Source: a plasmid. Taken from it: DNA of 64,000 nt. The stretch's first letter is position 1, and each line of letters starts with the position of its first letter. The notes beneath the pieces are model-generated. The model was not told where the DNA came from and ran no database searches. It saw only the letters and a list, made by a program, of their open reading frames with translations. This document shows, in pieces, positions 1,250 through 60,228 of the stretch. The position numbers were made by a program, and so were the translations under genes. Location of the stretch: the sequence record NZ_AP019725.1; one strand, given 5' to 3'.

Positions 1250-1695
1250 CTTCCTTTTCTAAGCTGTCTCTTTATGTTATAAGTAAGAACACCCCATATC
1301 AGGTAGTTGTTCTCTTCAGTAATCTTTATGGGTGAATATTCCTCGTTGGCCGGTACGAGCCAGATACATTTCTCCTTATCGTCAAAGCGCACAGTCTTCA
1401 GCGTGAACTCTCCATCGATGAAAGCCACAACGATGTCACCGTCCTGAGGCTCCAAGGCCTTGTCTATAACCAACAGGTCGCCATCATCAATACCACAGTC
1501 CTTCATTGAATCTCCGGAAGCACGGGCATAGAATGTTGTGGCCGGATGACGTATGAGTTCCCGGTTCAGGTCTATGCTGTCAGTCATGTAGTCCTGGGCC
1601 GGTGAAGGAAATCCAGCTCTCACACCTTGATCTGCAAACGGCAATGACAGTTCACTGCTCAGGTCAGCAGAATACATGGTAAGTTTTATGTTCAT
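1246..1695 (-). CDS. umuD: UmuD-like S24 LexA-family peptidase (SOS mutagenesis protein)
   Basis: 149 aa ending in a LexA/UmuD-like S24 peptidase domain ([18 protein letters not shown]...[13 protein letters not shown]). Its stop overlaps the umuC start in a classic umuDC arrangement. Confidence 0.85.
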
Positions 1696-7707: not shown

Positions 7708-8292
7708 ATGGCAGAGGAATATAAAAGTATAAAGATTAAAGAGGATGTAAAGAATAGACTTGATAGATATAAAAAGAGATGCAGTTATTCAGACTGCCTG
7801 GATGAGATGCTTGGGTATTTCGAGCTGACCGGCGTAGAGCCCCGTCTTGGTCAAACACCTCCAGTTGCTACTTTTGTTTCTACCATGAAGTCTGGCAATG
7901 CTGTTTTATTGAAGAGAATGGATGATCTGATAAAGATTCTACGTAATATTGAGATTAATAAGATTGATCCCATATTACATAGTGTTGAGGATGGATTTTT
8001 CTCGGATAGAAGTAATACTCCAGAAGTAGGGTTAAGTGTTTCTGAGGAGGAATTATACCAGGTAATACAAATGAATGAGAAATTGAAATCGGATATACGA
8101 AATAAAGATATACTTATACAAAAACTTCGGTCGGATGCTATTGAAAATAATGTTATTCAGGATATTATATCTGATATTGAAGAACTATTATCTGACAGAA
8201 TTCTTTCTTCTAATAAAGACGGTTTCTTTCTATTGTCTCGCGAGCATAGAGATCAACTAATAAGAAAAATTAGAACATATATCAATGTATAG
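7708..8292 (+). CDS. mobA: MobA-like mobilization accessory protein
   Basis: 194-aa protein and first gene of a three-gene operon with overlapping stops and starts, placed as in Bacteroides mobABC modules. Confidence 0.55.
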   Translation: MAEEYKSIKIKEDVKNRLDRYKKRCSYSDCLDEMLGYFELTGVEPRLGQTPPVATFVSTMKSGNAVLLKRMDDLIKILRNIEINKIDPILHSVEDGFFSDRSNTPEVGLSVSEEELYQVIQMNEKLKSDIRNKDILIQKLRSDAIENNVIQDIISDIEELLSDRILSSNKDGFFLLSREHRDQLIRKIRTYINV

Positions 8293-9214
8293 CAAATTGC
8301 ATCGTCCAGAAAAAAATGAGTTGGGAGTGTCAGTTAATGCAGGCAGTTGTGTTAAATTGGCTCATTACTTGGATAAGGAATCTGGTAGTGGAAAATTCTT
8401 TTTTTCGCAAAATCAGGATAGTGTGCCTTTGACCGAAGTAATACAAAAAATAGACAACAATAAGAAAACACTTAAAAACAATCAAGATAAATTCTACATG
8501 TTATCCTACAATCCTTCACAAAGGGAAATTGCCCATTTGATTAAAGAGGTGACAGGAAAAGATAACGTGGTAGCTCTTTCTTCACTGACGGATAAGGAGA
8601 TTGAAAAAGTTGTCTCTGAATTCCAGGATTACGTAAGGGACTGTATGGATATATATGCTAGGAATTTTAATAGAAATAAGGATTTGTCAAGTGAAGATCT
8701 TCTCTGGTTTGGAAGAGTGGAAACTGAACGGCATTATACATATCTTGATGAAGAGGTTAAGGATGGCTTAAGAAGTAAGGGAGACTTGAAAGAAGGATTG
8801 CAGCTTCATGCTCATGTTATAGTTTCCAGGATGGACGTTACTCAGACCATATCATTGTCGCCTCTGGCTAAAAGTATGGGAAATGTTAATGTTCTTAATG
8901 GGAAAGCCGTGAAAAATGGTTTCAGCATGAAAGGGTGGCAGGTAGACTGCTTTCAGCATTTCGGTAATAAATATGGATATATAGCAAATGCAGATGAACG
9001 CTTTTACTATCACGATAGCAGTTATTCCAGCTATAAAAATAAGATTCAGAATAAGATTATACATGAGGTAATGGAGGATATGAAAGAGGAGAGGCAATTT
9101 ATGACTGGTGCAAGAAATATTACTCTAATTCTTCATCCAACAAAGAAATCTGTCAAGTTGTATTTAAAGCAAAAAATTAAAAATATTTTATTGGAAAATG
9201 AGTCAGTGATATGA
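8285..9214 (+). CDS. mobB: MobB-like relaxase (relaxase/mobilization nuclease family)
   Basis: Carries a relaxase motif-III-like LQLHAHVIVSRMD (HxH...NRxD pattern). It overlaps mobA by 8 nt and mobC by 4 nt. Confidence 0.6.
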   Translation: MYSKLHRPEKNELGVSVNAGSCVKLAHYLDKESGSGKFFFSQNQDSVPLTEVIQKIDNNKKTLKNNQDKFYMLSYNPSQREIAHLIKEVTGKDNVVALSSLTDKEIEKVVSEFQDYVRDCMDIYARNFNRNKDLSSEDLLWFGRVETERHYTYLDEEVKDGLRSKGDLKEGLQLHAHVIVSRMDVTQTISLSPLAKSMGNVNVLNGKAVKNGFSMKGWQVDCFQHFGNKYGYIANADERFYYHDSSYSSYKNKIQNKIIHEVMEDMKEERQFMTGARNITLILHPTKKSVKLYLKQKIKNILLENESVI

Positions 9215-10842
9215 GTTTGATTTTTATTGAATGTTTGTTTCTTTCTGCATGTTTGATTTTTCTTATGGGCATTAATCCATTTGTAAAAAAATGGAAAAAT
9301 CTTGTATTGTATGCTTGTGGAGGTTTTTTTCTTACTTTGATAGTTTCGTACGTATTTCTCTGTTTTTTTGAGGTTCAATTATCCTTTTATTTGATTGCTG
9401 TTTTTTCATTATTTTTTGTTGCCAAATATTTGCTCAATGAATCTGGTGTCGAGAAAGCCAAGCCTAGAAAAGACGAAGATACATTTATTCTTGGCAGCGA
9501 AAGCGGTCAGCTTGAATTCTATTATCCACGTGATAATTTCATGGTTTTGGGGGGTGCCGGTTCCGGTAAGACTGCCTCGATAGGTAAGCCCATTCTTGAA
9601 CAGTATATACGTTATGGATGGGCAGGATTCATCTATGATTATAAAGATTATGATTATACGAAGACAGCTTGGAACCTGGTGCAGAAGTATAAATATCCTT
9701 ATAAGTTCTATTATATAAGTTTCACGGATATGTCACGTACATATAGGTTTAATATTCTTAATAAAAATGTGATTCGTAATGAAACGATGCTCTTCCAGGC
9801 GATGACAGACTTCTTTAATGCAATGAAACCTGAGAAAGGTAATACTGATGAATGGTTTCAGGCTGCGCTTGGATTACTTTGTGGTGTGGCGGTGAGATTC
9901 TATAAATTTCAGGGTGATTACGAGAAGTATTGCACCCTTCCGCATATTCTCAATTTCATCCTGATGGCCACACCGGAACAATTGACGCGTTTTCTGGAGG
10001 GGGATATGATGTCTAAGATGAAAGCTGGTGCGTTTCTTGGCTCCAAGGGCAGTGAACGTACCCAAAGTTCTGTGATATTTTCCATCAATAACTATATCAG
10101 TAATTTAGCTACTAACAAGAACGTATGTTATGTCCTTTCTGGTAATGATTTTATCTATGACTTGATAGATCCGGAAGATCCGAAGCTCTTTGCTGTTTCA
10201 AATAACTTTGCGATTGAGAGTATGATTTCTCCTATTGTAGCGATGTTAGTTCCCCTTGCTGCACGTCGGATTGAGTTTGGTAATCGTGTGAAATTCGCAT
10301 TTGTTCTTGATGAAATGACTACCGTTAAAGTGAATGACTTCCAATCTTTGCCATCGGTCTTGAGAGAATATGGCGTTTCATTTCTTGTATTGACACAATC
10401 CGGTACGAAATTCGATAAATTGTATGGTAAGGAGGATAGGGTTTCCATTATGGCCAATTTTGCTAATTTATTCCTGGGGAAAACAAAAGATGTGGAAGCA
10501 TTGAAGTATTATCCCTTGTTTTTTGGAAAGGAGGAGAAGGAAAAGAAAAGTATTTCCGCGGGGTCCAGTTCCGGTCGATACAATAGTAGTGTTACCAGGA
10601 GCAAACAGAAGGAGGAAATTTATGATAGCAATAAATTTGCTGAATTGCAGAAAGGAGAATTTATACTTTCTGCAGGGGAGTCTAATGTAAGCCGAATAAA
10701 AACACGGTTTGAAAAGTTTTCACTGGATGAAAAACCGTTACCGATAGTGAAGTTAACAACTGACAGGGAGGTGGAACAGAATTATCGACAGATTGGAATT
10801 GACTGTGAGAAGCTTTTGAATGAGCTTTGCCCGCTCCAATGA
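9211..10842 (+). CDS. mobC: type IV coupling protein (MobC/TraG-TraD family)
   Basis: N-terminal transmembrane helices are followed by a Walker A motif (LGGAGSGKTASIG). Size and position match a T4CP. Confidence 0.8.
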   Translation: MSLIFIECLFLSACLIFLMGINPFVKKWKNLVLYACGGFFLTLIVSYVFLCFFEVQLSFYLIAVFSLFFVAKYLLNESGVEKAKPRKDEDTFILGSESGQLEFYYPRDNFMVLGGAGSGKTASIGKPILEQYIRYGWAGFIYDYKDYDYTKTAWNLVQKYKYPYKFYYISFTDMSRTYRFNILNKNVIRNETMLFQAMTDFFNAMKPEKGNTDEWFQAALGLLCGVAVRFYKFQGDYEKYCTLPHILNFILMATPEQLTRFLEGDMMSKMKAGAFLGSKGSERTQSSVIFSINNYISNLATNKNVCYVLSGNDFIYDLIDPEDPKLFAVSNNFAIESMISPIVAMLVPLAARRIEFGNRVKFAFVLDEMTTVKVNDFQSLPSVLREYGVSFLVLTQSGTKFDKLYGKEDRVSIMANFANLFLGKTKDVEALKYYPLFFGKEEKEKKSISAGSSSGRYNSSVTRSKQKEEIYDSNKFAELQKGEFILSAGESNVSRIKTRFEKFSLDEKPLPIVKLTTDREVEQNYRQIGIDCEKLLNELCPLQ

Positions 10843-13600: not shown

Positions 13601-15004
13601 ATGAAATTCAACCAGTTCATAGACAGACAAGACTCTTTGGAAAGACTACAAAATGCGTTTTTAAGAGAAACGCCCCAATTTCTTGTTATATACGGTAGAA
13701 GACGCATCGGTAAATCCACGCTCATCAAGGAGATAATGAAAGACGATGATGTCTATTTTCTGAGTGACCAGACTAATGAGACCAACCAGCGTGCCTTGTT
13801 CGCCAAGACCATTGCTTACTGCATCCCCCGGTTTGATAAAATGATTTATCCTGACTGGGAAACGCTGCTATTGGAGTTGAATGACAAGCTAACCCGGCGT
13901 ATAACCGTTTGTCTGGACGAATTCCCGTACATGGTCAAGAGCTGTACTTCCTTGCCATCGGTCATCCAAAAGCTACTTAATGGGAAAACACTCAAATATG
14001 ACTTGATTATTTGCGGTTCTTCCCAACAACTCATGCAAGGATATGTACTGGATAAAAGAGAACCCTTGTATGGCTTGGCCGATGAGATTGTCAAATTAGA
14101 GCCAATCCCCGTATCCTACATCAGCCAAGCGTTGGAAGTGGATAGAATCTCCGCAGTGGAAGAATACTCCATTTGGGGAGGGATACCCAGATACTGGGAA
14201 CTGAGAGCCGATTATTCGGACATGAACACCGCCATCCGAAAATTGATTTTAGATACCAAAGGGATATTGGCTGAAGAGCCCCAAAGACTTCTTCGTGATG
14301 ACCTGCGAGATACAGTACAGACCTCTACCATCTTATCCATCATTGGGAACGGCGTCAACCGCATTACCGAAATTGCATCAAGAGCAGGGAAGGATGCGAA
14401 TCAAATTTCCGAACCACTAAGCAAATTACGTGAGTTAGGATACGTCAGGCGTGAGATACCTTTCGGCGAGAGTGAGAAAAAAAGCAAGAAAGGCATTTAT
14501 CGCATCAATGACAATATGTTGCAGTTTTACTACCGATTCGTCGCACCGTACCATTCTATCCTCGAACTGGGACGTATCGACACCGTCATGCGCCTGATAG
14601 AGACACAATTCAGCCTATATGTAGGTGACTGTTGGGAACACTTGTGCCGACAATATGTAAGCGGTAACGAAATAGACGGTATCATCTACAACATGGCTTC
14701 CAGGTGGTGGGGGAAGATATTCCCCAATGACAACAAAGAGGGAACGATGATAGAACTAGATATCGTAGCAGAATCCTTCGACAAGAAACATATTCTTATC
14801 GGAGAATGTAAGTGGACGAACGGAGAAGATGCACAACGATTGGCTCACTCTTTATCAGAAAAAGCACAAAGCCTCCCATTCGTCAAAAGGGGGCAGCAGG
14901 TGCATCTCGTCCTTTTCCTGAAAAGGACACCCGAACATCCGGAAGCAGCTAGGTATTTCCTGCCGGAGAATATTGTGAGCTCTCATGCCTTTAGGCGTGA
15001 GTAG
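13601..15004 (+). CDS. ATP-binding protein (AAA/Arch_ATPase plus DUF234-type)
   Basis: Walker A motif (YGRRRIGKSTLIKE). Paralog of 24077..25414. Confidence 0.75.
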   Translation: MKFNQFIDRQDSLERLQNAFLRETPQFLVIYGRRRIGKSTLIKEIMKDDDVYFLSDQTNETNQRALFAKTIAYCIPRFDKMIYPDWETLLLELNDKLTRRITVCLDEFPYMVKSCTSLPSVIQKLLNGKTLKYDLIICGSSQQLMQGYVLDKREPLYGLADEIVKLEPIPVSYISQALEVDRISAVEEYSIWGGIPRYWELRADYSDMNTAIRKLILDTKGILAEEPQRLLRDDLRDTVQTSTILSIIGNGVNRITEIASRAGKDANQISEPLSKLRELGYVRREIPFGESEKKSKKGIYRINDNMLQFYYRFVAPYHSILELGRIDTVMRLIETQFSLYVGDCWEHLCRQYVSGNEIDGIIYNMASRWWGKIFPNDNKEGTMIELDIVAESFDKKHILIGECKWTNGEDAQRLAHSLSEKAQSLPFVKRGQQVHLVLFLKRTPEHPEAARYFLPENIVSSHAFRRE

Positions 15005-16752: not shown

Positions 16753-18369
16753 CTATATACCATGTTCTAAATCAAGACTCTTTTTTTTTGAAGTTGAAGG
16801 TTTGATATTCCATCCGGAAGTCAATGTCACTTTCTCAAAATTCTTTTCTACACTACCTTTTGTGTAAGTTAGGATGCCCTTTTCCAGGAAATTTTTGAAA
16901 TCAGATGATTTCATGTCTCTGAAAATGTTTATATATTCATTTTTAAGAAATTCATTTATGGCATGTGCTGATATTTTTTTTTGCGTGCATTTTTCTATAA
17001 CATATAAATTACTAGGTACCGGTACCATCGTGTTCAGCCCCATGAAGATATTACAGTCTACCATGAGAGTGTAAGCGCTACTCTCGGCAAGAGGTGCGGA
17101 AATGCAATAATTGGCTTGCTCAAGCAGGGAATCCACCAGCTCTTTTGTGGAAGAACTGATACTATTGGCCAATTGTTCATATCCTCTTAGATTCAGTTGG
17201 GATATGGTCTTTTCGATAGCCGGGATGAATTTCATTCCTGGACCCAGGTTCAAATCAAATCTTTTGTAATAGACAAGAAGTTCATTCCAATCTTTGTACC
17301 GTGGAGGTTTGATGATATTTACATTGTCTATACTATGTTGCTTAAGATACTCGCCGGAGGAAAATGTGTCTTCTTTGAAGGTCAGCGTGTTTCCATCCGG
17401 GAAACTCAAATAGATGGTCTTATATGTGTCTCCAGTGTTGGTTCTGGCAAAAGCTTTACATTCCTCACCTTTGAGATAATATGCTGTGGTGATATCAAAA
17501 CCATTACCGCTGGCATCATTATCATAGCAACAATTCCACTTTACCTTATCAGATGGGAATATACGGCTTATATTCTCTATTTGGGATTTGGTGACATATC
17601 CCCCCGTGCTTATGAATGCGCATGTGGTTTCTTTAGTATAATGGTTTAGCTCGTAGAAACTCATTGCGTCAATAGCAGATTCAAAGAGATATATGTCTGT
17701 AACCTTGTCAAAAGGAACAAAATTGGCCATCCAACAGCTTTGGGCCTTGTCACCACCCGTGGCGAAGGCTTTATAATTGGTGTTGGTCTCTGCAAAATAG
17801 TTCCTCATTTCAAAGTTAAGGATTTCCATCCGGGAGGGTTTACGGAATGGAAAGCCGATATGATTGTTTTTCCCTACCTGGTAGATAAACAGTCTATTGG
17901 CAAAATCCTCCACAGTCTGTGGAGAGAGCCTCCTTTGGACGGTTAAATATGGATTATCCTTTTTGATAGGGCGGGGATTCCAATAATTCAAATTGAATTC
18001 CTTAATGTAGTTCTGGGTGTGGTCTTTTGTACGGCTTTGTACGTTGCTGGTGACAATTCTTTCGCCAGTCATATACCTTGAAAGAACTTCATTGACTCCT
18101 CTATATCCCTGTTGGGTGCAATAAGAGAACATATGCAATCTTTTAAGGACGAACTTGGTCAGCTCTCCCTTATCGTCAAAGCTGCCTTTCCTTGAGAAAT
18201 AGGTGTTCTTTTTAGGAAAGATGACTATTTCGTCTTCTGGATTTTTGAGGTTGCCAAGAACATAGGTCAAGTTCGTTGCTTGTCTGCCCGATATGCGTGT
18301 ATATCCGAGATCCTCTGCTATGTTTATGATTGATATTTTGGCCCTGCATTCATCGTAATCCATTTTCAT
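16753..18369 (-). CDS. DNA primase-like protein (CHC2-type N-terminus plus Toprim domain)
   Basis: N-terminal KISIINIAEDLGY and a Toprim-like LFESAIDAMSFYEL. Last gene of the ArdC operon. Confidence 0.6.
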   Translation of the reverse strand: MKMDYDECRAKISIINIAEDLGYTRISGRQATNLTYVLGNLKNPEDEIVIFPKKNTYFSRKGSFDDKGELTKFVLKRLHMFSYCTQQGYRGVNEVLSRYMTGERIVTSNVQSRTKDHTQNYIKEFNLNYWNPRPIKKDNPYLTVQRRLSPQTVEDFANRLFIYQVGKNNHIGFPFRKPSRMEILNFEMRNYFAETNTNYKAFATGGDKAQSCWMANFVPFDKVTDIYLFESAIDAMSFYELNHYTKETTCAFISTGGYVTKSQIENISRIFPSDKVKWNCCYDNDASGNGFDITTAYYLKGEECKAFARTNTGDTYKTIYLSFPDGNTLTFKEDTFSSGEYLKQHSIDNVNIIKPPRYKDWNELLVYYKRFDLNLGPGMKFIPAIEKTISQLNLRGYEQLANSISSSTKELVDSLLEQANYCISAPLAESSAYTLMVDCNIFMGLNTMVPVPSNLYVIEKCTQKKISAHAINEFLKNEYINIFRDMKSSDFKNFLEKGILTYTKGSVEKNFEKVTLTSGWNIKPSTSKKKSLDLEHGI

Positions 18370-18440: not shown

Positions 18441-19475
18441 CTATATTTCTGTTGACGAATCTGTAGAGTTGGCGATTTGTTTTGCAATGGATACCCCCCA
18501 CCCCGTCACCGTCTTATTCAGAGATACAAGACTATTTCCGCCGGACTTATTGGTCATTTCGACTTTGTGGCCGGACAGCAGTTTCTTGATTGTTTCCGGA
18601 GACTGCTTTTCCAGATTAATACTGCCTATGTTTAGAGGTTCTGTTTTACCGGTGGATTTATCTTTTATCTGGAAATCTGTAATCTGACTGACCGGTATAT
18701 TTCCTTTTTGGGTAATTGTTATATTTCCTTTTAGTTGCCTGCTGTCTGTTTTACATATGGAAACACCTTCAATTATGTATTTTGATTGGGCATTGTTACA
18801 AAAGTTGTCTATGGCTGATGCATATTGTGTCAGGGCTTGGGATATATCATCGTATCCCATTTGATGGTAGTTTTCTATTACTGTAAATAGTTCGTTCTTT
18901 TCTTCTTTTAACGGGTGTCTGGACATTATGTCAGAGAAACATGTTTTCAGACTGTTGTAGTCTCCTATTCGTTCCGGATAATTCGGATCGTCAGAAAAAA
19001 CGAAGTAGCTTATCTGATTGCTTTCTTTGCTATAATTAATGGCAAAATCATAGTTTCCGTTATTTCCTGTGATACCTATATAGTCTTTTTCCTTTAATAA
19101 AAGATACTTGCCATAAGATGTTGTATTCTCATAGGTTCTGGTAAATCCGTAATCTTTTAAGTGTTGTTCAAAATCTTTTATTTGAATAGGGAAATAGGCC
19201 TCTTCTTTCTCCTGAAGAATGTAGAACGCTTCTTTTTCACTTGTTGTCAGATCTGGGAGCTTGGTTGCTATAGAGTTTTCCAGTTGGTATGCTCTGAAAT
19301 TTTCCACTACATTTTCATGGAAATCTATCAAAAACTCCGGACTGCAACCGTTCTTCCTATAAATGTTTTCCGCTGCTTGCAGAATTTCTACAGCACAGCT
19401 GTCGCTTCCCTGGAAAACAATGGCTGGAATATCGTTTACCAGACATTTCTTCAGTAGTTCTTTTTGATCTTTCAT
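18441..19475 (-). CDS. fusion protein: small MKDQ-family domain plus central region plus shared C-terminal ~75-aa module
   Basis: The N-terminal 75 aa are homologous to 1692..1976 and 28468..28692. The C-terminal ...DKSTGKTEPLNIGSINLEKQSPETIKKLLSG... is shared with the next two genes. Confidence 0.6.
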   Translation of the reverse strand: MKDQKELLKKCLVNDIPAIVFQGSDSCAVEILQAAENIYRKNGCSPEFLIDFHENVVENFRAYQLENSIATKLPDLTTSEKEAFYILQEKEEAYFPIQIKDFEQHLKDYGFTRTYENTTSYGKYLLLKEKDYIGITGNNGNYDFAINYSKESNQISYFVFSDDPNYPERIGDYNSLKTCFSDIMSRHPLKEEKNELFTVIENYHQMGYDDISQALTQYASAIDNFCNNAQSKYIIEGVSICKTDSRQLKGNITITQKGNIPVSQITDFQIKDKSTGKTEPLNIGSINLEKQSPETIKKLLSGHKVEMTNKSGGNSLVSLNKTVTGWGVSIAKQIANSTDSSTEI

Positions 19476-19506
19476 TTTATATCTTCGTTTTTGTTGCCAG
19501 AATAAT

Positions 19507-21084
19507 TTAAATGCCAGCAGAGTTGTCAGCTGAGTTGAATACTTGTTTTACTGCGGATATTCCCCACCCCGTTATGGTTTTATTCAGAGTGACAAGACTG
19601 TTTGTGCCGGACTTATTGGTCATTTCTGTTTGTTGTCCGGATAACAACTTTTTGAGTGTTTCCGGAGACTGCTTTTCCAGGTCAATATCCCCCACATTTA
19701 TAGATTCTGTCTTACCGGTGGATTTATCTAGAATGCGGTAATGGCTGCTTTCTTTTTGGCCGGAAGAATAGAATACGTCATAGATCAGAGTTTTACAACC
19801 GGAAGATTGCAATTCTATTTGTTTTGTTGATATGTTTGTTTTCATTTCCATATATTTATTGGTAACGGCTGCCCATTTATCCATACCCTCGGCTGATATA
19901 TTTTCTTTATCGAGAGCTCCAAAAGGATTTTTAGCATATTCACGCATTATTTTATTACGTTCTTCTGATAAATATTGTTCTGGACTTATCGCTGCTTTTG
20001 TATTATTCGAGGAGTACCATTCTAAAGGATGTGGGTTATCTTCACCGTAAGCACCGTAAACTATGTCATCTACTGATTTTCTGATGTTGGCATCTGTGGT
20101 TAATGTTTCATATTTAAAGCCGTTTGGATTAGAATTTAATTCATCTTTTATACTTTTCAAATAGCTCTCGACAGTATTGTATTCAATAACTTCACATACT
20201 TTGCCATTAAAGTCATAATATGAAATGGTTCCTATGACTTCTTTATTGGAGAGTGCTTCAATATTATACTTATCTTGAGGTTTGTTTGAATAATCGATTC
20301 TTGTATTAACTTGTTTATGGCCATTTTCTTGTTGAATACCGGATTCTTCTATTTTAATATTGGGCTCTGTTCCCCTTTCCTTTGCAATGCCAATTTCATA
20401 TTTATAATCATCTATAATCTGTTTCTGTTTTTGTTTCTTCCAGTTCATTATTTTATCTGATTCATTATTGATATATTGATCTCCTTTATTATAATCAAGA
20501 CTCATTTCTTTTATGTAAACATAACCTTCAGTATCCTGTAGACTGGAAACTAACTTTTGGGTAGGCTTTATAATCCTGCGATCTGCTGGTACCTCTATAT
20601 TACCACAGTACGCTCTTGCAACTTCCTGGCAGACAGTAATAGTTGGATTTTTTATATATAAGAATAACTCTTTGTCTTTTCTTATAGTTATAAGTTGTGC
20701 TTTTTCTGTAGGATTCCTTATGTCACTAATGGAGGCCCTTCTCCATTTTAAAGCATATAGTTGTACTTTTTCTACTGGTTTTTGGATGTTTTTTATGCTG
20801 ATTCCCTCTTTTATGAGGTATAGTTGCTCTTTTGCTGTTAAATTCTTAATATGACGATAGTTGTATATATCATCTTTTAAAGCGATGAATCGTACTTTTT
20901 TTGTAGGTTCCTTTATATATTTTATTGCATGAGAAGAACTCCTTACGGCAGCCAGCTGTTGTGCTTCTGTCGGATTAGTTATCTCTTTAATCATTGTCGG
21001 ATTTCTCTTGATATTTTCTAACTCTTTGTTTTCCGAAGAATTGAGAATGTCGTTAATGAGTTCTTTTAGTGGTTTCATAAGCAT
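19507..21084 (-). CDS. DUF4116-like repeat protein with the shared C-terminal module
   Basis: At least six I(K/R)NPTxxxQL.A repeats in the N-terminus. The C-terminal ...DKSTGKTESINVGDIDLEKQSPETLKKLLSGQQTEM... is the shared module. Confidence 0.6.
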   Translation of the reverse strand: MLMKPLKELINDILNSSENKELENIKRNPTMIKEITNPTEAQQLAAVRSSSHAIKYIKEPTKKVRFIALKDDIYNYRHIKNLTAKEQLYLIKEGISIKNIQKPVEKVQLYALKWRRASISDIRNPTEKAQLITIRKDKELFLYIKNPTITVCQEVARAYCGNIEVPADRRIIKPTQKLVSSLQDTEGYVYIKEMSLDYNKGDQYINNESDKIMNWKKQKQKQIIDDYKYEIGIAKERGTEPNIKIEESGIQQENGHKQVNTRIDYSNKPQDKYNIEALSNKEVIGTISYYDFNGKVCEVIEYNTVESYLKSIKDELNSNPNGFKYETLTTDANIRKSVDDIVYGAYGEDNPHPLEWYSSNNTKAAISPEQYLSEERNKIMREYAKNPFGALDKENISAEGMDKWAAVTNKYMEMKTNISTKQIELQSSGCKTLIYDVFYSSGQKESSHYRILDKSTGKTESINVGDIDLEKQSPETLKKLLSGQQTEMTNKSGTNSLVTLNKTITGWGISAVKQVFNSADNSAGI

Positions 21085-21103
21085 TTTGTTTTGTAATTAT
21101 TGA

Positions 21104-22906
21104 TTATATTTCAATGGCATTGTCTATTGCATTCAATGATTGTTTCTCGGTCTTGAGTGTCCAGCCGATCGGTGACTTGCTTAACCTCATTATCCGCGTA
21201 GCACCGGATTGGGTGGACATTTCTGTCTGTTGTCCGGACAACAATTTCTTGATTGCTTCCGGAGGCTGTTTTCCCAAATCAATATTGCTTGCGGTTAAAG
21301 GTTCTATCTTGCCGGCAGATTTATCCTTTATATAGAATTCTCCAGATGAGTCGTTTAATAATGACCTGCATCCGGATGATTGGAGTTCAACTGTATTCAG
21401 TTCCTTAATCCTCAAAATTTCTTTAGTAGGCAATATGTGTTCTGTATAATCGCCGCCGGAACGGGACCCTGTACAAAGAATATAATCATTGCCGGATTTC
21501 CACACCATACGGTCTTGCATCTCATCTTTCCAATAAAATTGAGTATGAAGTTGCCCATGTTGATCGTAGTAGTAGTGGTGAATTACCGGCAGACCGTTTT
21601 TCTCAGATTTCCAGTTAATGCCCATTGCCATAGCCATACGCCTTGCTGCCTGGGTACTTTCCAAGTCAGGATGCCCATTTGCAGCTTTTATAATCCTTTC
21701 TGTTTTGGTAGGCTGACGTATCTCTCCTCTGCTGAGCATTGCTCTGTATTCTTCTTTCAGTACATTTCGTTCTGCTTCATATTTGTTGCTTCGTGTTATG
21801 CTTATGCTTGATAATAAATTTTGTTGGTGTTGTGGCCGGAGGTTTCCCTTGCGTGTTGTGGGCACTGAATAAAATGGATTTTCATATCCTCTCGATACGA
21901 GATATTCATCTTCGGTCATGACTGGTATCTGATTTTGTTTTTCGGTTGAATCCTCGTGTTCCCGGTTCAGACCTATACCTTCTTCCAGGGAAGTGACTGC
22001 TTTGTTGACATCACTTAAAATTGTCATAATAAATTTCGGATCACTCGAAATTATGGAACACCATCCGTCTAGGTACTGTGCGTTTTCTTTTCTGGGGGTA
22101 ACTGCCATACCTAGATCACGTCCGGTTACTGCAGCTGACAGTTCGGCAATCAATTCTTCGCGGGCGTATTCAGTGCTTCCGAAGGAACCAAATTTTCTTG
22201 CCAGTCTTTCTGGATGTCCGGTCGAATGTGCCATCTCGTGAAGAGCTGTGTAGTAGAATTCCTTATCATCAATGAATTGATACCTTTCTGGAAGGGTAAT
22301 GGAATCTTTGTATGGGCTGTAGAAAGCTCCGTCTTGCTCTTTAAGGGTGATGGGACATAGCCATGTCTGTTTTTCAATGGTTGAATCCAGTAGGGCATTC
22401 CGGAAATTGTTGCTGGAATTGATGGTGAACCTAAATTTCTTAACTAGAGCGTTCCATTTTTCTGGATAGACTTCTGAATAGTTGGTCTGGTCTAGATTGA
22501 ACACGTTGTAATATTTAAGAAATGGAATGACTTTATATTTTTCTTGTTCTGCAGGTGATAGGTCCTTGTAGAATTCTCTTGTGACCCGCTTTCCCGTTAT
22601 CTTGTCCTTAATGATTAAATCATAATAGGATACAGGAAATGCTTTGGCACCTTTCAGAACTTGTACCTTTTCATTACGCGCTTGGTTGAAAGTGACAAAA
22701 ATAGGGGTTTTATATTTGTATTTATCACAAATAAAATAGAGTAAAACCTTGTTCTGATTATTGTATGATCTTCCTGTCAGATTTTGCGGAAATCCCTTGA
22801 ATCGGGAAGTGAACCACGGTTTCGTCCAGTTGGATGAATGTACTTCTTTCATCTTTTCGATCATTAGCTCTGCATACTTTTCTAATGCCGGATTTTCATT
22901 TTTCAT
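21104..22906 (-). CDS. ardC: ArdC-like antirestriction protein (ssDNA-binding N-domain plus zincin-like metalloprotease) with the shared C-terminal module
   Basis: N-terminal domain WTKPWFTSRFKGFPQNLTGRSYNNQNKVLL, then an HExxH motif (YYTALHEMAHSTGHPERL). The C-terminal ...KDKSAGKIEPLTASNIDLGKQPPEAIKKLLSGQQTEM... is the shared module. Confidence 0.8.
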   Translation of the reverse strand: MKNENPALEKYAELMIEKMKEVHSSNWTKPWFTSRFKGFPQNLTGRSYNNQNKVLLYFICDKYKYKTPIFVTFNQARNEKVQVLKGAKAFPVSYYDLIIKDKITGKRVTREFYKDLSPAEQEKYKVIPFLKYYNVFNLDQTNYSEVYPEKWNALVKKFRFTINSSNNFRNALLDSTIEKQTWLCPITLKEQDGAFYSPYKDSITLPERYQFIDDKEFYYTALHEMAHSTGHPERLARKFGSFGSTEYAREELIAELSAAVTGRDLGMAVTPRKENAQYLDGWCSIISSDPKFIMTILSDVNKAVTSLEEGIGLNREHEDSTEKQNQIPVMTEDEYLVSRGYENPFYSVPTTRKGNLRPQHQQNLLSSISITRSNKYEAERNVLKEEYRAMLSRGEIRQPTKTERIIKAANGHPDLESTQAARRMAMAMGINWKSEKNGLPVIHHYYYDQHGQLHTQFYWKDEMQDRMVWKSGNDYILCTGSRSGGDYTEHILPTKEILRIKELNTVELQSSGCRSLLNDSSGEFYIKDKSAGKIEPLTASNIDLGKQPPEAIKKLLSGQQTEMSTQSGATRIMRLSKSPIGWTLKTEKQSLNAIDNAIEI

Positions 22907-24076
22907 AGCAATATACAGTATTAGTAAATATATTGTTTCAATTTTAATTCGCACAAATATATGCCTATAGCTATGCAATTGCATTTCGATTTTTCAATTG
23001 ATGACTAACACTTATAGGGAAGATTAGTTGTCATTATTCTAACAGAACTCTAACAGCCAAATTCACTGTAATCGACACTAAAATTACAATAAAGTTCACC
23101 ATACAAAACAATAGTTCGGTATCAATACAATCAATAAATCATGCCTATTCTTGCGCTGATGGTTCTGTATATAAGGTTAATCATGGAGGAGGTATTGCTC
23201 CAGGACAAAAACATGAAGCTAGTATTTCCATCTCAAGCAGTAAGTTACCGATGACATTCATAAATGTTTCAGACTCATATCCGTCTGGCTTATCAGGGGC
23301 TTCATATCCGACTACAATTATAAGTACAACGAAAGAGGTTCTGGTCACAGCGAATTAATAACTAATTTCAGAAGGAAACAAGGCCGGCCTCAATTATGGG
23401 CCAGCCTTGTCTTCATAAGCTATATACTGAAAAACTCTTTAGGAAATCATTTATTTAATAATCATATTTTCTCCAATCTGCTGATATATCCATATTCCTC
23501 GTTACAGTAAAAGTATAACTATGCAGGCGATTAGTGTCAGAGAAGGTCTTTATTGCCGTTCCGGAATCCAGATAGAGTTCGGTACGGATGGACTACCTGG
23601 ACGACATCGACATAGAGGAGTTCCGGGATATTCCCACCTATAAGCGTATGTGTATATGCATCCTGCGCAACGACCATACCTGCAAGTATATGGGGTTCGC
23701 CTTGACGAAGGAGGAGAACGAAATGAAGAGTAACGCCTTGAAAAAATACAAGGATATAAATGCACTATGATGCCTAACCTTCAACCATAAAAAAGCCCCG
23801 ACAGAAGCCGGGGCCACTTATCAAAAAATGATAAATAGAGAACTACTACAACAGCAAAAGTAATGTGTTTCCTTTAACAAACAAGTTATAACACATAGAT
23901 GATGTGGATGCGTGTATTGAAATAGACACATATAAGTATTCTTCTATAATAAGATTATAAAGTTGGGATTATGAAATATTTGTAGTACTTTTGTATTGTT
24001 TCATAAACTTACAGCCGTAATACTTACGATTGTAAGTTTTAATGGCAAGGCTGATTGATTGATAAAAACAGAAAAA

Positions 24077-25414
24077 ATGAAGTTTTATAATAGAGAAGAA
24101 GAACTTGAAGCTCTGAATAAAGTAAGAGAATTGTCTTTTAATGAACATTCCATGTTCACAGTCCTTACAGGTAGACGTAGGATAGGTAAGACTAGCCTTA
24201 TTAAAAAGAGTTGTAATAATACTCCTACTGTCTATCTATTTGTATCTAGGAGTAATGAAGCATTATTATGCCAAAGTTTCGCTGAGGAGATCAGAACTGC
24301 CCTTAATATATTCGTACCAGATGGCATAATATCTTTCGCCGATCTATTTCAATTTCTGATGGATGTTGGTACTAGAGCGAAATTTAATTTAGTAATTGAT
24401 GAATTTCAGGAGTTCTTCTTTATAAACTCTGAAGTGTACAGTAAGATGCAACATATTTGGGATAGTTATCGACTAAAGTCAAATATTAATTTAGTAGTGA
24501 GTGGTTCAGTATATACCTTGATGACTAAAATATTTAAAGATGAGAAAGAACCACTATTTGGCAGAGCTGATCGAATATTAAAATTGATGCCATTTTCAAT
24601 ATCTGTATTAAAAGAAATAATGACAGATAATGGGATACCTTTACCGGAGTGTAATGAAGAACTATTAGCTCTATACTCTTTTACAGGAGGGGTACCAAAA
24701 TATGTCGAGATGCTTGTTGAGAACGGTTGTCATGGTCTCATGGATGTAATGGTTGATTTTATGGTACAACCTGATTCTCCTTTTCTCACTGAAGGGAAAA
24801 ATCTCCTCATTCAGGAATTTGGAAAACAGTATGGAAATTATTTTTCTATATTGGCATCTATTGCTAATGGAAAGAATACACTCACAGAAATGGAAAGCCT
24901 TATGGGGAATATAAGTCTATCTGGACAATTGAAACGTTTGGAAGAAGACTATGAGTTGATCAAAAAGAAGCGTCCACTATTTGCTAAAGAAGGTAGCCAA
25001 ACCGTTAGATATGAGATATCAGATATGTTTTTACGCTTTTGGTTTCGTTACTTTGTTAAGTATCAAAATTTGATTGAGCTTCAAAACTATACTCTTTTAG
25101 GTGATATTATCAAAAAGGATTTTCCTACTTATTCTGGGATAACTCTAGAAATGTATTTTCGCAAAAAAATGATGGAAAGTCATGAATTTATGGATATTGG
25201 TGCCTGGTGGTCAGGTAAAAACAATTCCAATCAGAACGAAATTGATATTATTGGTATCTATGCAGATAATAAACGTGCCTTAGTTGCTGAAGTTAAACGT
25301 AAGGGACGTGAGTTTAAACCTGAACACTTTAAGCAAAAGATTGATTTTATACGTACAAAAATACTTTCCAATTATGAAATAGAGAGCTGTTGTTTAAGTA
25401 TGAATGATATGTGA
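24077..25414 (+). CDS. ATP-binding protein (AAA/Arch_ATPase plus DUF234-type), paralog of 13601..15004
   Basis: Walker A motif (LTGRRRIGKTSLIKK). An alternative TTG start lies at 24059. Confidence 0.7.
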   Translation: MKFYNREEELEALNKVRELSFNEHSMFTVLTGRRRIGKTSLIKKSCNNTPTVYLFVSRSNEALLCQSFAEEIRTALNIFVPDGIISFADLFQFLMDVGTRAKFNLVIDEFQEFFFINSEVYSKMQHIWDSYRLKSNINLVVSGSVYTLMTKIFKDEKEPLFGRADRILKLMPFSISVLKEIMTDNGIPLPECNEELLALYSFTGGVPKYVEMLVENGCHGLMDVMVDFMVQPDSPFLTEGKNLLIQEFGKQYGNYFSILASIANGKNTLTEMESLMGNISLSGQLKRLEEDYELIKKKRPLFAKEGSQTVRYEISDMFLRFWFRYFVKYQNLIELQNYTLLGDIIKKDFPTYSGITLEMYFRKKMMESHEFMDIGAWWSGKNNSNQNEIDIIGIYADNKRALVAEVKRKGREFKPEHFKQKIDFIRTKILSNYEIESCCLSMNDM

Positions 25415-25640
25415 GTCGGAATAATACTTTCCTTTACCCGTCCAAATAGAACAATCCCCTTACTTCAATTCAAGGTAAGCGACTGCTCAACTACATCTTG
25501 TGTATTCGATTTTTTATTGAGGTGCACTCCATTGTAAGTGCGTCTCGATTTTTTCATATGCCAACTTATCTCAGGGTTGTTATTGAGTGTCAATCTCGCT
25601 TTTTCCCGTTTTTTCCTGCATTTTCTCGGAACTGTCCCGA

Positions 25641-27227
25641 TTATTTTCTCCATACATCCGGTAGCAGTTCCTTCAGGTCTCTGTCTGATTTGGGTGCCAG
25701 ATAATAGGGGAGTTTACTGATCACATCATTCAGCCACTCTCTGGGGTTGACACCACGTTCCTTACATGAGCCAAGCAAGGAGCAGATTATAGCCGTATTC
25801 TCAGCAGCTTCGTGATTTCCGCAGAACAGCATGTTCTTTCTTGATATGACCAGTGGCCTCAGGGCATTCTCACAGCGGTTGTTGTCTATAAAGATTCTTC
25901 CGTCATGGAGATACGGTTTCATTCTTGGCAGCAGGGAGTAGGCATAGGCTATGGCTTTCCCCATAAGACTTCGTTTTAGAACTTTAGGGTATGTGTTTTT
26001 AAGCCAGAGTTCAAAGCTGTCAAGTATCGGCTCGGATAGACGTTGACGTAATTCAGCACGTTTTTCATACGGGAGTTCCTGTTTATCCGCCATGTATTCC
26101 ACATTATACATATCCTGGATAAATTTGAGTCCCTGCATGGCATATTCCGGATTTTCTTCCTTGCACAGCTCTATATGCCTGCGGATATGTGCGAGACAGC
26201 CACACAGGCACACGTCCTCTCTATCCTCAAAGGCGTCATAAATAGGATGGCCGTCACTTTGGAGATATCCTTTGAAGTTTTTCAAAAGCCTGACCGCAAC
26301 TTTTTGTGAACGCGATCCGTTGTCGTAATGGAAGAAGAGCAGACGCGGCACAGCCGCTCGGACTATCCAGATGTATTCTTTTGCGGCTTTATGCCTCTCA
26401 TGGTTTATAACCGGAAGCGTGGTCTCGTCAACCTGGAGGTAATCTGCGGCCAGTACTTTCTTCCTGAGTTCCAGATAAAGTGGTCTGAGAAGTTCGCAGA
26501 CCGGTCTGAACCAGCCGTCCAATGTGTTTCTGGACAGTTTCACACCCAGATGTTCCAGCTGTTTCACTTGTCGGTAGAACGGGACATGATATTCGTACTT
26601 CTGTAAAAGGACCTCAGCGAGCATGGAAGCCCCGGGCATGCCTTTATATATGGGCATCAGTGGCATGGGAGCGGTTATTACAGCCTTTTCTCCGTTGTCA
26701 ACGGCCTCCATTTCATTTTTCAGGGCATATGTGGGACGTACCGTGTCTTTCACATAGAGGTAGCCGGGTTTCATCTCAAGGGTCCTGGTATGTTCCTCGC
26801 CTATCTTGACGTATCTGCTTAAATCGACATTCTCCGGTTCGATGACGACTGTTACAACCGGAAGGTTATTCATGACGACCCGGTTACGGCGTGGCGTTTT
26901 ATTGGCGGCCCGGGACTTGGGGACGGTAATCTGTTCAGCCGCCCTGCTCCGGGCCTCTTCGATTTCCGCCTCTATCTGTTCCAGGTCGCCATAGTCAAAA
27001 GGGAGCTTCGGGTCTCCGTTATCGACAGGCTTGCATTTCTCACTCATCTTTCCGAACACCTTCCTCTTCAGCCATGCCAGGGAGGCGTTCAGCTCAACTA
27101 TCGTACCCCGGAGCTCTTCTATGGTCCTTGCCTGGGCCGAGATGATCTCACTCTGTTTACGGTTGATATCCAGCAGCTGTTCCATTGAGGATTCCACAGC
27201 TTGTCCGGTTGCATCTTCTTTTGCCAT
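25641..27227 (-). CDS. tnpC: IS66-family transposase TnpC
   Basis: 528 aa, positioned as the third ORF of the IS66 element, with the coiled-coil N-terminus MAKEDATGQAVESSMEQLL... typical of IS66 TnpC. Confidence 0.85.
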   Translation of the reverse strand: MAKEDATGQAVESSMEQLLDINRKQSEIISAQARTIEELRGTIVELNASLAWLKRKVFGKMSEKCKPVDNGDPKLPFDYGDLEQIEAEIEEARSRAAEQITVPKSRAANKTPRRNRVVMNNLPVVTVVIEPENVDLSRYVKIGEEHTRTLEMKPGYLYVKDTVRPTYALKNEMEAVDNGEKAVITAPMPLMPIYKGMPGASMLAEVLLQKYEYHVPFYRQVKQLEHLGVKLSRNTLDGWFRPVCELLRPLYLELRKKVLAADYLQVDETTLPVINHERHKAAKEYIWIVRAAVPRLLFFHYDNGSRSQKVAVRLLKNFKGYLQSDGHPIYDAFEDREDVCLCGCLAHIRRHIELCKEENPEYAMQGLKFIQDMYNVEYMADKQELPYEKRAELRQRLSEPILDSFELWLKNTYPKVLKRSLMGKAIAYAYSLLPRMKPYLHDGRIFIDNNRCENALRPLVISRKNMLFCGNHEAAENTAIICSLLGSCKERGVNPREWLNDVISKLPYYLAPKSDRDLKELLPDVWRK

Positions 27228-27307
27228 TCAATATCCTTTTTTGATGATATAAAGATAGCGAAAAGCTATAAGAAAAACAAGCCTTCAAGCTGTTTGTTTA
27301 CAACTGT

Positions 27308-27679
27308 TTACCAATGCTTTTTCAAATTGGAAAGCCGTCTTTGCCTGCCTTTGCTGACATCTTCATTGATGCCTTCCACCATAACGACCAGGTCACTCCA
27401 GGTCATGGGGTAAGAACGGGTGGCAGGATCATAGGCGGGTATCTTGAAGGTGCCTTCTTCAAGCAGTTTCTCGTAAAGGACCAGACCGCCCGGTTCGGCA
27501 TGGAGCAATTTTATCTTGGTCCGGAAACGGTTGTAGAAAATGAATACGTCCCCACTTCTGATGTCGCCTCCCATCCTCTCATGCACAAGGCCGCAAAGAG
27601 TGAACATACCTTTCCTCATGTCCGTATAACCGGGGCATAGGAAATATCTCATGCTGTCATTTAGGCAGAACATTGGCAT
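27308..27679 (-). CDS. tnpB: IS66-family TnpB (Orf2)
   Basis: 123 aa with an IS66 Orf2-like sequence (YTDMRKGMFTLCGLVHERMG...). Confidence 0.8.
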   Translation of the reverse strand: MPMFCLNDSMRYFLCPGYTDMRKGMFTLCGLVHERMGGDIRSGDVFIFYNRFRTKIKLLHAEPGGLVLYEKLLEEGTFKIPAYDPATRSYPMTWSDLVVMVEGINEDVSKGRQRRLSNLKKHW

Positions 27680-28091
27680 TATATATTTTAGAGATCAGAT
27701 TCAGGGCAGCTTCACAGCCGGAAGACCCTTTAAACTTCAACTTCAATCCGTTGGGTAATTCCAAGGATATTTCAGAGCTGTCCTTTCCTTTCAAGGGAAA
27801 GGGGACGCTAGGCTGGGGAGATGGCAGGGGAGTCTCGTGAGATATACCGGGGGATGGCGTGTCGCCATTGATTACTATGGGGACAAAGCTGTCTTTAACC
27901 CCTAAGCGGGAGGCTTCTGCCAATAACTCCCGCTCCGTTATACCGTATTTTTGTTTCCAAAGATAGAATCTACTACGGCTATAACCTTCATTCTCACAAA
28001 AATCAGCAATGGACAAACCACTCTGCTGCTGACGGAAAAGAACGGAGATAAATTTTTCTCTGCTCATCATGTGTTTACGTCGCTGCATCAT
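27657..28091 (-). CDS. tnpA: IS66-family TnpA (Orf1, HTH)
   Basis: 144 aa, first ORF of the element, overlapping the tnpB start. Confidence 0.7.
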   Translation of the reverse strand: MMQRRKHMMSREKFISVLFRQQQSGLSIADFCENEGYSRSRFYLWKQKYGITERELLAEASRLGVKDSFVPIVINGDTPSPGISHETPLPSPQPSVPFPLKGKDSSEISLELPNGLKLKFKGSSGCEAALNLISKIYNANVLPK

Positions 28092-28194
28092 AGGATATTA
28101 TTTTTTTGTAGCAAAAGTAAGGAGGGAAAATGAACTGTAGAAGATGTACTTACTTAGGCGCTTACAATTCAAGAAGTAAGGGGATTATTGTTTG

Positions 28195-59908: not shown

Positions 59909-60228
59909 TGGATATTTGCAAGGTATATAGGGGACTGGATTCTCCCTGCAAAATCAAGGGGGTGCTGAGTCACTATTTCTATATTGTCTTCTGTGCCTAT
60001 CTGGTGAGCTTTGTCTTTGTCCTGTTTTCTTTCAGTTCGATTTTGCAGAAGGGAACTGTACTGTCCTTCCTTGTGGAGGCGGTCATTGAATTGGGAATTC
60101 CGACAGCTCTTTATGTGTATTTCTATAGGAAATCCGACAAAGTGAAGATAAGAAAGGACAACCGTGTTATCACAATATCGAACCGTGGGCTTTATAGGGC
60201 TTTAAACCAAAGAAGATATGGACAATGA
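59908..60228 (+). CDS. traF: conjugative transposon protein TraF (DUF4133-like)
   Basis: ~106-aa membrane protein. Its ATG overlaps the traE stop (ATGA). Confidence 0.6.
   Translation: MDICKVYRGLDSPCKIKGVLSHYFYIVFCAYLVSFVFVLFSFSSILQKGTVLSFLVEAVIELGIPTALYVYFYRKSDKVKIRKDNRVITISNRGLYRALNQRRYGQ

Follow-up and report, generated by a model that had tools for sequence, protein, structure and literature searches.

A conserved C-terminal module on consecutive genes of a Bacteroides uniformis plasmid as a candidate recognition signal for conjugative protein transfer

Transfer of proteins in the course of conjugation has been documented for a few proteobacterial plasmids (PMC5512222, PMC8406263). The ArdC protein that pSa encodes and RP4's TraC1 primase are stated to be transferred full-length, and on proteobacterial plasmids an ArdC-N domain, a peptidase and a primase are fused in one transferred polypeptide, TraC1 (PMC5512222); the SogL primase is listed as a natural substrate of conjugation systems (PMC8406263). 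Iyer et al. have predicted that the domains of such 'polyvalent proteins' are delivered with the invading DNA (PMC5512222). Among the C-terminal recognition domains described for substrates of type IV secretion systems (T4SSs), two bear directly on the present case: XVIPCD, whose folded part binds the all-alpha domain of VirD4 and whose folded part and tail are both required for translocation (PMC8740702), and BID, which originated in conjugative systems and has spread by domain shuffling onto varied cargo (PMC5675462). Here we analyse a 64,000-nt stretch of plasmid record NZ_AP019725.1 (the window), to which all coordinates and the gene letters A, B, C and D refer, and describe a module that ends the products of these four genes of a Bacteroides uniformis conjugative plasmid.

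The sequence evidence gives about an even chance that the module acts as a portable C-terminal substrate-recognition signal for the conjugative T4SS of the plasmid. That it would be the first substrate-recognition (translocation) signal identified for a Bacteroidetes-type conjugative T4SS is a claim that we put forward on the same sequence evidence with somewhat less than even confidence. Our literature search found no description of the module or of any Bacteroides T4SS signal, and no study of conjugative protein transfer in Bacteroidota. That T4SS substrates share a C-terminal recognition domain is, as a kind of arrangement, known; this particular domain family is unnamed and has no detectable relatives.

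The module in genes A to D

The three minus-strand open reading frames (ORFs) in which a first-pass annotation of this DNA had noticed a shared C-terminus lie at the positions it gave. Gene A (18441..19475) encodes a protein of 344 aa that has at its N-terminus a conserved helical region (MKDQKELLKKCL..IPAIVFQG), then in the middle a small alpha/beta domain, and finally the module, which occupies about the last 110 residues (18444..18773; E 4e-41 with the module hidden Markov model, HMM). Gene B (19507..21084) encodes 525 aa, with N-terminal 'NPTE..VQL.A' repeats, a middle region in common with A and the module in the last ~109 residues (19510..19836; E 5e-43). The product of gene C (21104..22906) is an ArdC-like protein of 600 aa, in which an ArdcN domain and an MPTase-PolyVal zincin domain precede a module copy of ~99 residues (21107..21403; E 1e-34, residues 531-629 of the longest ORF).

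In pairwise blastp the C-termini matched at 49% identity over 78 aa for A and C (E 1e-19) and at 48% over 103 aa for B and C (E 4e-23), and A and B aligned at 36% over 242 aa (E 1e-33); the module copies are 47-68% identical to one another. The first-pass annotation had quoted the C-terminal motif correctly, and the nucleotide similarity that it saw near three positions takes the form of three in-register copies of 211 nt (18466-18676, 19532-19742 at 77% and 21129-21339 at 62%). What it put at ~75 aa is a module of ~100-110 aa, made up of a folded domain of ~90 aa and a tail of ~14 aa, and the N-termini, which it took to be unrelated, are not wholly so in A and B, whose similarity runs well beyond the module. 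Across the last 78 codons of A, B and C, the ratio of nonsynonymous to synonymous substitution rates (dN/dS) was 0.14-0.27, and dS was ~2-2.7, near saturation, for A or B against C. The low dN/dS and the nearly saturated dS indicate that the three modules are old paralogous copies under purifying selection at the protein level, and neither chance resemblances nor products of recent gene conversion. A shufflon or recombination origin of the three DNA repeats was rejected on the same figures, together with their direct orientation and their 62-77% identity.

A fourth, divergent copy lies in gene D (16753..18369, minus strand; 538 aa), a primase-like gene of the long form. Its product scored above the Pfam cut-offs for PF13155 (Toprim_2, 2e-10) and PF13154 (DUF3991, 3.3e-09) and by these domains is a DUF3991/Toprim conjugative primase-like protein. 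The C-terminus of D reads '...TLTSGWNIKPSTSKKKSLDLEHGI' and has 20 residues from GW to the stop, as in the module. The module HMM was not significant against the D of the window alone (E 13); it aligned with the C-terminal ~110 residues in 24 of 24 D-family homologues, at weak domain scores of 2 to 20 bits. Alignment by hhalign of 58 module sequences with 25 D-family C-termini gave a probability of 97.9% (E 4.3e-13, 98 columns) and places the copy in D at about residues 416-538 (16756..17124); the module and D-family HMM matches were reciprocal across the fetched loci. The D family comprises long forms of ~526-545 aa with the module and short forms of ~355-375 aa, covering ~67% of the query, without it, and D-family primases also have the acidic tail and the aliphatic last residue. 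Since the C-termini of the D family align with the module profile, the module is found on four consecutive genes rather than three. The operon does end in a primase, as noted before, and this primase additionally carries the module.

The gaps between C and B, B and A, and A and D are only 19, 31 and 71 nt, which is in keeping with a single operon made up of these four genes. Gene C scored above the Pfam cut-offs for PF08401 (ArdcN, 1.2e-27) and PF18818 (MPTase-PolyVal, 1.3e-31) and matched the PHROG anti-restriction protein family (1.7e-56); in domain content it is an ArdC anti-restriction protein, with a single-stranded DNA (ssDNA)-binding N-domain and a zincin-like metallopeptidase. Its longest ORF reaches 22984. 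The ATG at 22906, already taken as the start in the first-pass annotation, is favoured by homologues and by a Bacteroides-type -7 motif, TAtaTTTG (matching TAnnTTTG), at 22961..22954 on the minus strand, 48 nt upstream of this ATG; the motif falls inside the ORF that starts at 22984, which supports the shorter start. A scan of the operon for sigma-70 promoters and terminators returned 34 promoter-like sites where 25.7 were expected and was not informative for Bacteroides, and an inverted-repeat search upstream of the operon revealed nothing resembling a large ssDNA-promoter hairpin. Gene B had been described as DUF4116-like. Pfam found no such match in B itself, of which residues 8-103 match PHROG repeat families; the description suits the family, since the repeats are DUF4116-like in relatives and DUF4116 is present in 5 of 51 members.

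Two further mobile blocks accompany the module. A ~70-aa block, 'EVIGKISYY.FNG.V.E.IEY....YL..IK.EL..NP.GF.Y.TL', travels with it, being present in B (residues ~290-360) and fused to ArdC in relative P0084, and in many members the module is preceded, at a distance of ~35 residues, by a '(Y/F)..LGY..(I/L)(A/S)..I' helix; P0032, P0041, P0042, P0069, P0080, P0081 and P0084 are relatives that show these blocks.

Metagenomic relatives of D (P0098-P0111, P0124, P0133, P0135 and P0147, one cluster having 1931 members) are mostly chimeras of 620-672 aa that retain ~37-77% of D at 81-99% identity and add carboxypeptidase-regulatory and TonB-receptor plug domains. With only part of D kept and other domains added, they cannot hold the complete C-terminal module of D. 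A gene of this chimera type, annotated 'carboxypeptidase-like regulatory domain-containing protein', lies at 13658..14911 of the B. finegoldii plasmid NZ_OY725920.1.

Predicted fold and family of the module

The module of B, modelled by AlphaFold with an 8-sequence alignment, gave a pLDDT of 84.5 and a pTM of 0.71, with seven strands and one helix (strands 2-7, 10-19, 22-32 and 37-42; helix 53-60; strands 65-69, 74-82 and 85-90), and in its tail, residues 91-104, the block means of pLDDT drop to 54 and 48. In a model of full-length A, built on a different alignment, strands and helix recur in the identical order at residues 233-330, where the block means of pLDDT are 73-93 and for the most part near 90, and residues 333-344 form a disordered tail. 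The models thus predict with confidence a beta-rich fold that is followed by a disordered acidic tail. A tail that is conserved yet disordered suggests a linear motif that is recognized at the free C-terminus, in the manner of known T4SS signals.

A beta-rich C-terminal domain of ~90 aa in a Bacteroides protein might also be a type IX secretion system (T9SS) C-terminal domain (CTD) or another surface or extracellular export signal, and such export is common in Bacteroidota. We regard this explanation as effectively refuted: at E <= 1, NCBIfam gave no match to T9SS CTD models, the cargo consists of cytoplasmic, DNA-directed domains, and direct reading of the N-termini (A, MKDQKELLKK..; B, MLMKPLKELIND..; C, MKNENPALEKY..; D, MKMDYDECRAK..) reveals no signal peptide in any of the four proteins.

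When 1.84 billion representative proteins were searched exhaustively with a profile, 67 matches were returned, corresponding to ~60 true clusters, in proteins of 79-1076 aa; five of the matches, the ankyrin proteins P0037 and P0085 as well as P0087, P0092 and P0093, proved on reading of the sequences to be repeat-protein artefacts. The first-pass annotation had asked whether the module is always C-terminal, and in nearly all complete members of the ~60 clusters the match does end at, or a few residues from, the C-terminus. Of the 77 printed tails having a GW motif of this kind, 66 place it exactly 20 residues from the stop, even at 30-40% identity; 51 of 58 module sequences terminate in I, L, V or M, and the last 12 residues have a net charge of -1 or -2 in 55 of these 58. 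The folded part, on the other hand, is mildly basic, with a median isoelectric point (pI) of 8.9 and a net charge of +2. The consensus reads ..SSG.K.LIGD......N.RI.DK.TGK.EPL....IDL.KQSPE.IKKLLSG.KVE....G....GL.KTP.GWGL..GKQ.F..ADSSAEI-COOH. The element is widespread: clustering at 90% identity places each of the proteins A, B, C and D with ~800-1300 sequences, drawn from hundreds of contigs.

As N-terminal partners of the module, Pfam found MPTase-PolyVal in 7 of the 51 full-length members, ArdcN in 5, DUF4116 in 5, LPD23 in 2, and ART-PolyVal and RadC in 1 each, the others having no named domain. The module region itself matched no Pfam, NCBIfam or PHROG family and had no sequence or fold match in the PDB; the similarity to an enzymatic or DNA-binding domain that the first-pass annotation had named as a finding that would refute its proposal is thus absent from these four collections. 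Homologue searches with a single module sequence and with a 25-sequence profile returned just short proteins or fragments of <=179 aa and no added architectures, and the species-representative genomes gave just 2 loci.

These properties bear on two alternative functions. The module might be a nucleic-acid (ssDNA or T-strand) targeting domain that gathers the proteins on the incoming strand, with the proteins perhaps piggy-backing on the DNA instead of being recognized by the coupling protein. The folded part is basic, the partners act on or near DNA (ssDNA-binding ArdC-N, primase, RadC, ART-PolyVal), and the central helix-hairpin is weakly like DUF4099, a companion of ArdC and DUF3945 proteins in other integrative and conjugative elements (ICEs). 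We nevertheless find such a role quite unlikely, as no known DNA-binding fold or family was matched, ArdC has an ssDNA-binding domain of its own, a net charge of +2 is modest, and the strict terminal position and the acidic tail would be left unexplained. The module could, in turn, be a C-terminal regulatory element, either an autoinhibitory domain or a degron, cut for example by the ArdC-type metallopeptidase or by a host protease, which would keep the proteins inactive or short-lived in the donor. A zincin peptidase does co-occur in the operon, processing of polyvalent proteins by MPTase has been proposed by Iyer et al. (PMC5512222), and the conserved C-terminal residues are a possible protease recognition tag. 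Yet a conserved fold of 90 aa is much larger than known degrons, the stretches recovered for two loci described below (L010 and L013) contain module proteins and a primase and no ArdC/MPTase gene, and the data give no specific pointer to cleavage, so that we rate this function as highly improbable.

The plasmid and related loci

The window is collinear, at 95-99% nucleotide identity, with the 62-kb circular B. uniformis plasmid pBuniCL06T06-1, and another B. uniformis strain has plasmid proteins, BBK89518-21, to which the A-D proteins are identical (B being BBK89520 and C BBK89521). The element is a B. uniformis conjugative plasmid and not the conjugative transposon that the first-pass annotation had in mind. 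On the plus strand it encodes a BfmA/BtgA-type accessory protein (7708..8292; from the annotation of a 98.6%-identical plasmid), a DUF5712/MobB-like relaxase (8285..9214; Pfam DUF5712 2e-65, NCBIfam MobB_relaxase 181 bits with a cut-off of 200) and a VirD4/MobC-like coupling protein of 543 aa (9211..10842; Pfam T4SS-DNA_transf, TrwB_AAD_bind and TraG-D_C), which we propose as the receptor of the module. The NCBIfam model Bacteroid_MobC matched this coupling protein at model positions 197-640 only, which indicates that it is without the N-terminal YWFCY region. A VirB4-like TraG ATPase (60218..62647, plus strand; Pfam P-loop_TraG 6.6e-50, NCBIfam TIGR03783 242 bits with a cut-off of 261.55) is 99% identical at the nucleotide level to a 'conjugal transfer protein' gene of pBuniCL06T06-1, which is followed there, by annotation, by a T4SS protein, traM and traN. 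TraG, MobB and MobC are divergent members of their subfamilies, as the NCBIfam scores are all under the curated cut-offs. With a VirB4-like TraG, a coupling protein and a relaxase recognizable by sequence, the replicon carries a Bacteroidetes-type conjugation system.

Module genes stand in tandem sets of 2-5, with the long-form primase last, in every locus that has enough context, namely the window, the plasmid locus L008 and loci L005, L010, L011/L012 and L013. Locus L005 has 4-5 module ORFs, then the primase, then DnaJ and ArdA; L010 has a 613-aa module protein, a RadC/A-type fusion (978 aa), the primase and DUF1896; L011/L012 has a module ORF, an ArdC with the module and the primase; and L013 has a DUF4116-repeat module protein followed by the primase, DUF1896, a methylase-helicase and ParB. 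In L003 an ART-PolyVal/LPD23 module protein (1076 aa) precedes a 584-aa module protein and the contig stops before any primase position, and in L002, a Bacteroidales contig, an A-type homologue is accompanied by SSB, a DUF3945 protein, a TraE-like gene and TraG.

This arrangement could also reflect an assembly or docking domain by which the operon proteins associate, homotypically, heterotypically or on a common scaffold (the primase, SSB or the relaxosome, for instance), into a non-covalent 'polyvalent' complex in the donor or the recipient; secretion would then not be signalled by the module itself. The module is limited to the genes of one operon, the primase is always in the set, paralogous copies have long co-existed in each element (dS ~2-2.7), and the dockerin type of logic, in which one C-terminal docking module is placed on many catalytic domains, would suit these proteins. 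An acidic tail with a hydrophobic end also recalls the C-terminal interaction-hub tail of SSB. Moreover, the same activities are covalently fused in polyvalent proteins (PMC5512222). We think that assembly is an unlikely primary function, although a worthwhile one to bear in mind: oligomerization has no evident need of an extreme C-terminal site in nearly all members, of an invariant tail length or of a conserved last residue, and the plasmid showed no candidate for a scaffold that has repeated receptor domains. Assembly is, besides, compatible with translocation, since the proteins could be transferred together as a complex.

ICEs with the short, module-less primase offer a comparison. In two CTnDOT-like loci (L014, 6809..12001, and L016, 1023..4312) a syntenic operon encodes a DUF4099 protein, then an ArdC of 519 aa, then the primase. 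This ArdC is without the module and ends in a DUF4099-like domain, which is also C-terminal in a 291-aa protein downstream of the primase (38% identity, E 7e-10), so that DUF4099, like the module, occupies the corresponding operon position and is common to the ArdC C-terminus and neighbouring proteins. Unlike the module, it has further N-terminal and internal copies in the DUF4099/DUF3945 proteins of these ICEs and is no strictly terminal tag. The coupling protein of the sister ICEs is of the YWFCY type and 23% identical to that of the window; primase form, ArdC module and coupling-protein type appear to switch together between one module-bearing and two module-less systems. DUF4099 and the module have a weak likeness in a central motif, '..L..LLSG.(K/R)T......G....L.L', and hhalign of the module with 11 DUF4099-like segments, a shallow alignment, gave a probability of 35% (E 4e-4) over 42 central columns. 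A search with DUF3945 and DUF4099 models had been suggested as a check on the module, and neither PF13101 (DUF3945) nor PF13351 (DUF4099) matched A, B or C at E <= 1 or any of the 51 members at E <= 0.001. A limited literature search turned up no paper characterizing the function of DUF4099. The DUF4099 of the sister ICEs may be a parallel shared-module system.

Several other features of these plasmids were noted. Plasmid NZ_CP072237.1 (L008/L009) is typed as 'non-mobilizable' by PLSDB/MOB-suite; it encodes a coupling protein, VirB4/TraG, TraM, TraN and a DUF5712 MobB-like relaxase (181 bits, cut-off 200), and given these conjugation genes the typing probably reflects a failure to detect Bacteroidales relaxases. 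The pMMCAT plasmid paper makes no mention of ArdC, primase or module genes. The window at 38.9-49 kb has no match in the collinear plasmid, and these ~10 kb resemble an inserted mobilizable transposon, which encodes at 40232 a tyrosine integrase that has an Arm-binding domain, at 41882 a DUF5906/VapE-like protein, at 43593 a DnaG-type Toprim primase and at 44574 a Mob_Pre relaxase. The insert also has a class A beta-lactamase gene (46359..47312) over the cut-off of the NCBIfam MUN-family (extended-spectrum) model (689.5 bits against 640), which is followed by a Mutator/IS256-type transposase gene (47656..48870). Upstream of the operon, window positions 22907..28174 hold a DUF234 ATPase gene (24059..25414) and an IS66-family unit (25641..28091), where pBuniCL06T06-1 has three tyrosine recombinase genes instead. 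At the left edge, UmuD-like (Peptidase_S24) and UmuC-like (IMS) genes (602..1695) lie in a stretch of higher G+C content without a counterpart in the reference plasmid.

A candidate secretion signal among known systems

Recognition by the T4SS of the plasmid seems to us the best reading of the module because of its terminal position, its fixed, disordered and acidic tail, its promiscuous cargo, the self-transmissible replicon and the apparent switch of module and coupling protein. The cargo, which includes ArdC, primase and polyvalent domains, also fits delivery, as the same set of domains is predicted or known to be transferred. A targeting or secretion tag on cargo proteins had been the proposal of the first-pass annotation, and those of its computational predictions that were tried held true (C-terminal location, varied partners, a T4SS replicon, no enzymatic family, the primase included); translocation itself is what we infer from them.

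In such a scheme, the folded part of the module would dock in the donor on the VirD4/MobC-like coupling protein, the free C-terminal tail possibly being engaged first, and the tagged proteins would cross the Bacteroidetes-type T4SS to the recipient alongside, or slightly before, the transferred strand, to work there ahead of any expression of plasmid genes. In the recipient, the ArdC-like protein could counteract restriction and the primase begin synthesis of the complementary strand, and A, B and their relatives with RadC, ART-PolyVal, LPD23 or DUF4116 domains might target defences or DNA. The operon would then be akin to a disassembled 'polyvalent protein', provided in this Bacteroidales lineage as separate polypeptides with one ticket each.

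Several points weigh against a recognition signal. On the 62-kb plasmid, the module is confined to the four operon proteins; it is absent from SSB, ParB and the relaxase, all of them substrates in other systems, and a general secretion tag might be expected on more than four plasmid proteins. We know of no translocation signal for Bacteroidetes-type T4SSs with which the module could be compared. A domain that is modelled as a confidently folded beta structure would need to be unfolded for transport, and a basic domain, as the sequences predict it to be, equally fits nucleic-acid binding; a docking or assembly role or an ssDNA-binding role is compatible with the same data. Early expression of anti-defence genes from the leading region, within the recipient, is an alternative route (PMC11541004) by which protein transfer would become unnecessary. 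The co-variation with the coupling protein rests on one module-bearing and two module-less systems, a small number. Finally, if DUF4099 were a distant relative of the module, as the hhalign probability of 35% leaves conceivable, its non-terminal copies would argue for a function other than that of a terminal signal.

If recognition by the T4SS is nonetheless correct, presence of the module would define the proteins that are injected into recipients by common gut Bacteroidales plasmids and ICEs, would allow a sequence-based listing of the 'conjutome' of Bacteroidales elements and would provide a portable fusion tag for heterologous protein delivery between gut Bacteroidales. Conjugative elements dominate gene flow among human-gut Bacteroidota, and the establishment of this plasmid in new hosts is of practical relevance because the present copy has a gene for an extended-spectrum beta-lactamase. 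A concrete hypothesis for the receptor is the YWFCY-less MobC-like coupling protein, and in the sister lineage DUF4099 might take the equivalent role, paired with another coupling protein. Even if its role is in assembly or DNA targeting, the module is an unnamed, well-folded family with an unusually strict terminal architecture.

The known systems resemble the module in different respects. The C-terminal Dot/Icm signals of Legionella are short and unstructured, with a Glu-rich 'E-block' and hydrophobic residues. The module is like them in its acidic extreme C-terminus with a conserved hydrophobic residue, whereas they have no conserved folded domain ahead and belong to an unrelated class of T4SS. 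SogL of ColIb-P9, TraC1 of RP4 and ArdC of pSa have the same activities as the present operon (ArdC-N with a zincin peptidase, and a Toprim primase) and the same presumed role in the recipient; in those systems, however, one polypeptide often combines the activities and a discrete signal domain common to the proteins has not been defined, while here the activities are encoded by separate genes, each with the module.

The signal of BID, found in Bartonella Bep effectors and in some relaxases, is likewise bipartite and C-terminal, with a domain of ~100 aa and a tail. BID is a helical bundle with a positively charged tail. The module is beta-rich (seven strands and one helix) with an acidic tail (-1 or -2) and does not classify as BID, and the relaxase of the present plasmid is without the module, unlike the relaxases that have BID. 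XVIPCD, too, is a C-terminal module, of ~100-120 aa, on effectors with unrelated N-termini and has a folded part and a disordered tail, and the coupling protein of the window has TrwB_AAD_bind, the counterpart of the all-alpha region bound by XVIPCD. No homology of the module to XVIPCD was found by sequence or by fold. The XVIPCD tail is glutamine-rich, while that of the module is short and acidic, and XVIPCD serves a proteobacterial killing T4SS with toxins as cargo, whereas the module belongs to a Bacteroidales plasmid with a Bacteroidetes-type T4SS and cargo for establishment and anti-defence. By analogy with these two systems, the module would be a functional counterpart of XVIPCD and BID that is homologous to neither.

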